Sequence record: HE978309 | Source: Enterobacteria phage GEC-3S | Reading direction: 5' to 3' (one strand) | Length of the DNA stretch: 64,000 bases | The notes under the pieces: generated by a model | Seen by the model: the letters and a program-made list of their open reading frames with translations, nothing else | Told to the model about the DNA's origin: nothing | Database searches by the model: none | Translations under genes and position numbers: made by a program | In this document: in pieces, positions 21,981 through 22,397 of the stretch | Layout of the letters: every line of letters starts with the position of its first letter | Position numbering within the stretch: position 1 is the stretch's first letter

Positions 21981-22397
21981 TTAGAGAGATTCGGTAAAGG
22001 TACGCGCGATAACGTCACGCTGCTGGTCTGGAGTCAGACTATTGAAGCGCACTGCGTAACCAGAAACGCGAATTGTAAGCTGCGGGTACTTCTCAGGATG
22101 TTCAACAGCGTCCAGCAACATTTCTCGTAACAATACGTTAACATTCAAATGCTGGCCACCTTCGACAACCGGAGCACCATTATCTACAATGACAGGACGG
22201 AAGCTAGTTGTGTGCAGTGCCAGCGAATCGACGTCTTCTGCGGTGATCACATGATCTTCCGCGAAAGTTTTACTAACAATTACTTTAGCGCCGATCAGTG
22301 CTTTCGGTTCGGATACCAGAATCATAGGCGCGAAGTGTCCACCAATAATAGTACCTTTATGCTCACCTTTCATGATTTGAATTGCTTTAAATTCCAT
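21981..22397 (-). CDS. autonomous glycyl-radical cofactor (GrcA/YfiD-like; T4 Y06I-type)
   Basis: C-terminal half ([10 protein letters not shown]...[33 protein letters not shown]) is near-identical to E. coli GrcA as I recall it; AGAGGTG before ATG. Confidence 0.85.

Follow-up and report, generated by a model that had tools for sequence, protein, structure and literature searches.

The GrcA-like vs.6 protein of a T4-type phage: a host-like glycyl-radical domain probably maintained by purifying selection rather than recently exchanged

Main finding

The window analyzed here, a stretch of phage DNA 64,000 nucleotides long, carries a gene, vs.6, whose product probably serves as a spare part for the host pyruvate formate-lyase PflB. 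The protein joins a C-terminal glycyl-radical domain of the pyruvate formate-lyase (PFL) type to a phage-specific N-terminal half, and its close resemblance to host GrcA probably reflects purifying selection, not recent exchange. The gene itself is already known as vs.6, and identical phage proteins carry a GrcA annotation. We describe below how the gene was identified, what distinguishes its two halves, and how nucleotide comparisons with bacteria and with related phages bear on the history of the C-terminal domain.

Identity and organization of the gene

The vs.6 coding sequence occupies positions 21981..22397 on the minus strand. It is an open reading frame of 138 codons plus a stop with an ATG start, and it encodes a GrcA/YfiD-like autonomous glycyl-radical protein; the residues quoted in an earlier reading made from the letters alone (the sequence-only reading) are found in its translation. 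A Shine-Dalgarno-like GAGGTG, read from the sequence, lies 4 nt 5' of the ATG (22402..22407, minus strand). Directly 3' of the stop codon is a terminator-like hairpin (21971-21947) with a 10-bp stem, followed by a T-run (21937..21971 in all, minus strand), and phages G2248 and G37-3 have the same hairpin marked as a putative terminator.

The closest relatives of the gene place the window within Krischvirus, the RB49/Phi1/ECD7-like group of T4-type phages, because vs.6 is nearly identical in nucleotide sequence to the corresponding genes of ECD7 (99.3%), Phi1 (99.0%, annotated there as vs.6), and RB49 (97.8%). The 138-residue protein is 100% identical to one from phage Skers that is annotated as a “putative autonomous glycyl radical cofactor.” The local gene order is vs.8, a 41-codon open reading frame, vs.6, nrdC.11, three small open reading frames, regB, vs.1, vs, tk.4, and tk. 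T4 vs.6, which is annotated as GrcA, sits in a syntenic vs.8...regB-vs-tk block, and the window gene is its ortholog. We take T4 vs.6 to be the protein called Y06I, which agrees with the finding of one GrcA-like gene per phage genome. Homologs are widespread: a tblastn search recovered 1,579 phage records, which include T-even types, T5-like phages, Vibrio and Aeromonas phages, and jumbo phages.

A conserved radical domain joined to a phage-specific N-terminal half

Profile searches bear out the sequence-only reading of a stand-alone glycyl-radical protein of the GrcA/YfiD type. The Pfam Gly_radical profile matches residues 78-119 (E=1.5e-16) and is followed to its end, and phrog_1209 is matched over the full length (residues 3-138 aligned to all 121 profile positions, E=3.4e-51). 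Searches of the PDB return YfiD (6OWR, E=5.8e-33) and also pyruvate formate-lyase. The best NCBIfam match is TIGR04365, the autonomous glycyl radical cofactor GrcA, with 133.8 bits over residues 37-138, a score that falls below the equivalog cut-off of 170 bits. E. coli GrcA scores 233.9 against the same profile, T4 vs.6 scores 151.1, and the proteins of phages phiS and JK32 score 116.2 and 113.7. Since the biochemically validated T4 protein fails the cut-off as well, this threshold separates bacterial from phage forms and not functional from nonfunctional ones. The overall architecture is that of the GrcA/YfiD family (TIGR04365 / IPR011140), namely, a stand-alone protein of 138 residues (typically ~120-140) with a C-terminal glycyl-radical domain.

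This domain comprises residues 78-138 (21984..22166, minus strand), and its version in the window is the one we call the canonical Krischvirus allele. Residues R110-V116 form the RVSGYAV loop. G113, the predicted radical site, is encoded at 22059..22061 on the minus strand (acc on the plus strand, codon GGT) and aligns to GrcA G102 and to the radical loop of PflB, where the equivalent glycine is G734 (PMC8683613). The tetrapeptide S112-G113-Y114-A115 is invariant across 78 homologs. Over its last 61 residues, the protein agrees with E. coli GrcA at 56 positions, including RVSGYAV and the final 15 residues, with Salmonella/Kosakonia-type GrcA at 58, and with the T4 protein at 54. Residues 78-138 also align with residues 700-760 of PflB, with 50 of 61 identical (82%, E=1e-33) and RVSGYAV intact. 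Similarity to GrcA is thus not limited to the radical loop but spans the whole 61-residue domain and reaches, weakly, as far back as residue 37. In an AlphaFold2 model, the predicted C-terminal domain likewise matches the YfiD nuclear magnetic resonance (NMR) structure 6OWR and PFL.

How much this protein identity says about history depends on how the domain varies among bacteria. Across the same 61 residues, E. coli GrcA is 93-100% identical to its counterparts in Enterobacterales and Pasteurellales, 95% identical to that of one Vibrio, and 90-92% identical to those of Neisseria. Because these residues remain 90-100% identical from Enterobacterales to Neisseria, the 92% identity between the phage protein and GrcA is the background level of the family and is uninformative on recency. 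We attribute the near-identity of the C-terminal domain to purifying selection on a domain that must fit host PflB and PflA. Five residues of the domain differ from E. coli GrcA, and three of these (M93, L95, and E99) are those found in PflB. As a mark of a PflB-derived or ancestral state, these three positions are weakened by the fact that L95 and E99 are common in GrcA of Salmonella, Klebsiella, and Kosakonia. L90, M93, and D124 are absent from the sampled bacterial GrcA sequences, M93 being the PflB state.

The N-terminal half (residues 1-77; 22167..22397, minus strand) is specific to the phage lineage. Its 77 residues are ~42% identical to T4 and ~34% identical to E. coli GrcA by global alignment, so the observation that the last 60 or so residues are almost identical to E. 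coli GrcA while some 70 N-terminal residues differ holds up well. Against Salmonella GrcA, the N-terminal half is 23% identical; its alignment scores with GrcA are near zero, and the TIGR04365 alignment begins only at residue 37. The motifs KAxQI..G.HKGTI and IVSKTF.ED are shared with T4 vs.6 and not with GrcA, whose N-terminal half in E. coli is 11 residues shorter than that of the phage protein. Residues 1-60 of E. coli YfiD/GrcA are disordered by NMR, in contrast to the phage N-terminal half, for which AlphaFold2 predicts four beta strands with moderate confidence (pLDDT ~75-85; mean pLDDT of the whole model 79.4, pTM 0.47). A fold search with the predicted structure gave significant matches for the C-terminal domain alone.

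Host conversion of vs.6 in T4 and RB69

The T4 gene provides a positive control for what recent exchange with a host looks like at the nucleotide level. Its 3' 183 nt are 96.7% identical to E. coli grcA, with the same codon at 55 of the 59 same-residue positions and agreement at 31 of 32 four-fold sites. The synonymous divergence (dS) between T4 and E. coli grcA is 0.094, compared with 0.90 between the grcA genes of E. coli and Salmonella. 5' of a GTT/ATT-GAAGGTGG boundary, T4 vs.6 and grcA are unalignable. The 3' half of RB69 vs.6 is similarly about 95.6-97% identical to E. coli grcA, and positions 200-384 of the E. coli gene match 614 phage records at 95-99%. The grcA genes of other enterobacteria show graded identity to that of E. 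coli (92% for both Citrobacter amalonaticus and one Trabulsiella assembly, 90% for Edwardsiella). Because the T4 tract is closest to Escherichia within this series, the direction of transfer in T4 is from host to phage. Judged from these comparisons, the vs.6 genes of T4 and RB69 carry a host-converted 3' half, of which we found no account in the searchable literature on phage grcA/vs.6 evolution.

T4 vs.6 and the window gene share the two-part architecture and the same PHROG (phrog_1209). They differ in length, the T4 protein being 18 residues shorter for want of two N-terminal insertions present in the window protein, and their 3' halves are only 73% identical in nucleotide sequence. The idea of exchange with an enterobacterial host, put forward in the sequence-only reading for the window phage, therefore holds for the T4-type phages T4 and RB69 and not for the phage in which it was proposed.

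Allele replacement and homing endonucleases in Krischvirus

We compared vs.6 across 57 Krischvirus records. The N-terminal half is near-invariant in all of them (96.6-99% nucleotide identity), and between the window and other Krischvirus alleles its nonsynonymous divergence (dN) is ~0 with a dS of 0.02-0.19, a pattern that clearly indicates purifying selection on vs.6 within the genus. The 3' 186 nt, in contrast, are at least 95% identical to the window in 36 records, 90-95% in 2, 80-90% in 5, and less than 80% in 14. Protein alignments show the same near-invariant N-terminal half joined to several C-terminal domains, some of them mosaic, all of which retain S-G-Y-A; in the JK32 and phiS alleles the loop reads RISGYAT and RISGYAV. 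The replacement alleles carry 12-19 substitutions in the C-terminal domain. Because this domain is freely swapped within the genus, the comparison suggests, against our main reading, that the constraint on its exact sequence is looser in phage than in bacteria.

Four loci with replaced alleles, those of phages JK32, phiS, G37-3, and JSE, were examined around vs.6. Each has an insertion of 509-581 bp after vs.6 that encodes an endonuclease with NUMOD4 and HNH_3 domains (Pfam), at a site that pairwise alignments place within ~21909-21938 of the window. In the window, the corresponding intergenic region between vs.6 and nrdC.11 (21895..21980, no strand) is an empty site. Measured over 207 nt, the 5' part of vs.6 in these four phages is 93-98% identical to the window; for the first 186 nt the value is 98%, with a dN of 0 and a dS of 0.07-0.13. 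The 3' part is 60-74% identical with a dS that ranges from 1.6 to saturated. By sliding-window identity, divergence sets in at ~22208 in JK32, phiS, and G37-3 and at ~22148 in JSE and G2248. The divergent tract in the endonuclease carriers stops at the insertion point, and identity of 97-100% resumes at the start of nrdC.11; the replaced vs.6 tract beside the endonuclease gene measures 240-290 nt. The window, Phi1, and SSG23 have no endonuclease gene after vs.6 and are alike in both the 5' part (98-100%) and the 3' part (96-100%). G2248 also has no endonuclease at this site; its 5' part is 97% identical, and its 3' part is canonical except for a 60-nt patch in common with JSE.

The link between endonuclease and allele is statistically supported (Fisher's exact p=0.006 with 8 endonuclease-linked and 3 canonical alleles; p=0.018 with G2248 counted against it). 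Four variant alleles from metagenomes also have an extra open reading frame between vs.6 and nrdC.11. The site is shared by two endonuclease families with ~23% mutual identity, which together occur in 14 phage records, a number that equals that of the records with a divergent 3' part; the two sets were matched individually at JK32, phiS, G37-3, and JSE. Intronless homing in relatives of T4 has been reviewed (PMC2993671), and the pattern seen here is as expected for it, with co-conversion of the flank and a target that would have diverged to immunity. As with the freestanding homing endonucleases of T4-type phages, an endonuclease gene adjoins the replaced tract in the relatives, vs.6 being the putative target. 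The window differs in that it has no endonuclease gene and carries the canonical allele at an empty site. It seems that two unrelated NUMOD4-HNH endonucleases have brought about the exchange of the vs.6 3' part for divergent, presumably cleavage-immune alleles, and the allele of the window, which is endonuclease-free, would presumably be cleavable. We found no report of the link between vs.6 and these endonucleases in the searchable literature. Like the host-converted tract of T4 and RB69, it is a feature of other phages and not of the DNA of the window. Taken more broadly, the proposal that the vs.6 module is a recombination hot spot, with endonuclease-driven 3' replacement in Krischvirus and overwriting by host grcA in phages of the T4/RB69 types, strikes us as evenly balanced between true and false.

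These alleles also raise the question of whether the window gene is itself a mosaic, its canonical 3' module having come from an older recombination at the domain boundary, either from phage to phage or from an unsampled bacterium. The uniformity of the 5' 207 nt across the 57 records beside the 14 strongly divergent 3' parts is consistent with such an event, as are the breakpoints described above, the existence of mosaic alleles (G2248, P0004, and P0005), and the use of the same boundary in the host conversion of T4 and RB69. The replaced alleles, however, are the endonuclease-linked ones and not that of the window, and a donor of the canonical module was found neither in phages outside the genus (at most 78.6% identity) nor in bacteria. 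The canonical allele is also the majority, endonuclease-free form and may be ancestral for the genus. We consider a mosaic origin of the window gene rather unlikely on this balance.

Comparison of the window gene with bacterial grcA

A recent acquisition or gene conversion of the C-terminal half from an enterobacterial grcA, as inferred in the sequence-only reading, predicts a nucleotide signature like that of T4. Protein identity at 56 or 58 of 61 positions would be in keeping with it, and the conversion of 183-185 nt in T4 and RB69 demonstrates that a mechanism is available in relatives. The nucleotide comparison turned out otherwise. Over its last 183 nt, the window gene agrees with E. coli grcA at 75.4% of positions; the same codon is used at 24 of the 56 identical-residue positions, and 12 of 29 four-fold sites are equal. 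In none of the 5,426 complete E. coli genomes did identity leave the 60-80% band, and the best match reached 76.8% over gene positions 232-408. When grcA genes from another 80 bacterial species were compared with the 3' half, identity peaked at 79%. By the Nei-Gojobori method (NG86), dS is saturated or undefined against grcA of E. coli, Kosakonia, Serratia, Haemophilus, Vibrio, and Neisseria, and it is 1.3-1.8 between the window 3' half and the closest bacterial sequences. No sampled bacterial grcA therefore exceeds 79% nucleotide identity to the 3' half, and dS is saturated or greater than 1.2 in every case.

We also evaluated base composition and environmental sequences. The third-position GC content (GC3) is 0.49 in the 3' half and 0.38-0.40 in the 5' half, compared with a mean GC of 0.41 for the window and a GC3 of 0.43 for E. 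coli grcA. This excess would favor a host-derived 3' half, but with 61 codons it equals ~1.3 standard errors, which is not significant. An exact 27-mer of the 3' module matched the JGI metagenomes once, in a Krischvirus-like contig. Combined with the equal conservation of the domain between bacterial orders, these results largely refute a recent host origin of the C-terminal half for the sampled hosts, and we judge that explanation very improbable.

Relation to the anaerobic ribonucleotide reductase genes

The sequence-only reading also grouped vs.6 with nrdD and nrdG in a glycyl-radical toolkit, and Pfam confirms both genes within the window. The anaerobic ribonucleotide reductase gene nrdD (2163..4025, minus strand) encodes a separate glycyl-radical enzyme (NRDD, E=9.4e-175, plus Gly_radical), and nrdG (248..757, minus strand) encodes the radical-SAM activase of NrdD (Fer4_12, E=1.5e-43, plus Radical_SAM), with an annotated nrdG at the syntenic place in Phi1. 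One could therefore suppose that the vs.6 protein supplies a spare radical domain to phage NrdD, forming one toolkit with nrdD and nrdG and not serving PflB, given that both genes share the window with it, that the RVSGY pentapeptide also occurs in NrdD, and that O2 cleaves NrdD, too, at the radical glycine. We dropped this idea as scarcely credible: phage NrdD and the vs.6 protein have just RVSGY in common and no domain-level similarity (best BLASTP E=1.2, versus 82% identity to PflB over 61 residues), nrdD and nrdG lie ~18 kb from vs.6 with dozens of open reading frames between, and the T4 ortholog acts on PFL together with the PFL-activating enzyme PFL-AE, according to PMC8683613.

Proposed function and implications

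Our preferred reading remains that of a spare part for PflB. Unlike PflB, the phage protein has no catalytic barrel and consists only of the radical domain and an unrelated N-terminal part. The RVSGYAV heptapeptide is the substrate motif of PflA, and host gene expression is expected to be off during infection by T4-type phages. From the homologous proteins of T4 and E. coli, we propose that vs.6 would be expressed from the early region and that the host activase PflA would abstract a hydrogen to leave a radical on Gly113 of the RVSGYAV loop. After cleavage of PflB by O2 at Gly734, the phage protein would dock into what is left of the enzyme and stand in for the missing C-terminal piece. PFL activity, the conversion of pyruvate to acetyl-CoA and formate, would thereby be regained. 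The proposed benefit to the phage would be a fermentative energy supply maintained in a micro-oxic infected cell in which host expression is off.

The published biochemistry is in line with this proposal. As described in PMC8683613, which cites Wagner et al. 2001, YfiD and T4 Y06I are both radicalized by PFL-AE and restore PFL cleaved by O2, which supports the statement in the sequence-only reading that Y06I acts like YfiD on the oxygen-damaged enzyme. A 2026 review of glycyl-radical enzymes does no more than cite Wagner et al. 2001. YfiD's N-terminal half aids binding to cleaved PFL and efficient activation and is not needed for catalysis itself (PMC8683613). Since the N-terminal half of the phage protein is longer and only ~34% identical in a region that matters in YfiD, its binding to PFL could differ from that of YfiD.

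Our analysis re-identifies a known phage auxiliary gene whose T4 ortholog has published biochemistry, and it adds a lesson for reading the family: high protein identity in this domain does not equal recent transfer, and a nucleotide test separates host conversion from constraint. If confirmed, the association of vs.6 with NUMOD4-HNH endonucleases would be a clean natural case of intronless homing against a gene common to phage and host. Should these endonucleases recognize the conserved module, host grcA or pflB might be cut as well. Confirmation would also account for variation being greatest, within this phage genus, in the part of the protein that the family otherwise conserves best.

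Probable host-derived grcA sequence in vs.6 of other phages

In both T4 and RB69, vs.6 ends in a stretch of approximately 185 nucleotides with 96 to 97% identity to Escherichia coli grcA, and the 5′ half of the gene cannot be aligned with it. Nucleotide matching to E. coli grcA places these 3′ halves at 8558-8742 of the T4 comparison sequence (L003) and 401-585 of that from RB69 (L087). The grcA-like 3′ tract of T4 vs.6 differs from E. coli grcA by a dS of only 0.094, with 31 of 32 four-fold sites matching, and grcA positions 200-384 find matches of 95 to 99% in 614 phage records. 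From these sequence comparisons, the radical-domain module of T4 and RB69 vs.6 looks like the product of host-to-phage gene conversion. Comparison with grcA also identified vs.6 of the Klebsiella phage pzk-kv19, a Jiaodavirus (L088, 301-663). Its 3′ half has 85% identity to E. coli grcA and 89% to a Pseudocitrobacter grcA, in a sampled set that included no Klebsiella grcA. In likeness to grcA, this 3′ half falls between that of T4 and that of the window. Klebsiella sp. WOUb02 plasmid unnamed4 (L017, 275,668 bp) also carries a grcA homolog (match 1501-1770), whose C-terminal domain is canonical; by its title, this record is a large plasmid and not a chromosome.

The N-terminal half of vs.6 and other genes

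Residues 1-77 of the window vs.6 protein (22167-22397) are modeled by AlphaFold2 as four beta strands and two short helices, with a pLDDT of about 75 to 85. By contrast, NMR shows the matching N-terminal part of YfiD from E. coli to be disordered. A fold search with the model of this half returned no significant match. The anaerobic reductase gene nrdD (2163-4025) encodes the radical loop RVSGY at residues 592-596, a pentapeptide also present in vs.6 and pyruvate formate-lyase, beyond which no likeness was found between the NrdD and vs.6 proteins of the window.

Three small unannotated minus-strand ORFs, at 20344-20679 (111 amino acids), 20738-20998 (86 amino acids), and 20980-21174 (64 amino acids), are each a counterpart of one of Phi1 ORF095-097. 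They have in common a TPG/AGKxY motif and a C-terminal GC(S/A)HL(D/R)GxxW(x)L motif, and by this resemblance the adjoining ORFs look like tandem paralogs.

On the metagenome contig OQVL01003746.1, the region behind the nrdC.11 homolog (L104, 8021-9195) carries ORFs unlike those of the phage region, one membrane-protein-like and one lipoprotein-like. The largest ORF listed for the homolog itself, from an internal ATG, has 168 amino acids compared to 232 in the window. Either a chimeric assembly or a phage rearrangement may explain this contig.

Homing endonuclease genes near vs.6

In 14 Krischvirus records, including JK32 (L094, 2965-3558), G37-3 (L098, 2966-3559), JSE (L099, 2965-3495), and phiS (L095, 3001-3528), vs.6 and nrdC.11 are separated by an inserted homing-endonuclease gene (NUMOD4+HNH_3); the corresponding empty site in the window lies at about 21909-21938. 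The endonuclease genes at this position are of two unrelated kinds, with approximately 23% identity to each other. In all cases examined, the neighboring 240 to 290 nucleotides of vs.6 are swapped for divergent sequence, which stops at the endonuclease insertion. In phage G2248, vs.6 (L097, 2501-2917) contains a JSE-like divergent patch of 60 nucleotides, GGQHANINVMSRDLLLDAVANPE, which aligns with window 22089-22148, but there is no endonuclease gene behind vs.6. This patch could be what remains of a co-converted tract, or a site that resists the endonuclease in a phage lacking the enzyme itself.

Between vs.8 (22533-23018 in the window) and the gene for an M15 peptidase (23081-23470), JK32, phiS, JSE, and G2248 have a 576-bp ORF. 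The G2248 copy has HNH_3 and AP2 domains (Pfam), and the annotation of JK32 calls its copy an ERF/AP2-type protein. In the window, just 62 nucleotides separate the two genes, indicating that 23019-23080 is a second empty homing-endonuclease site close to vs.6.
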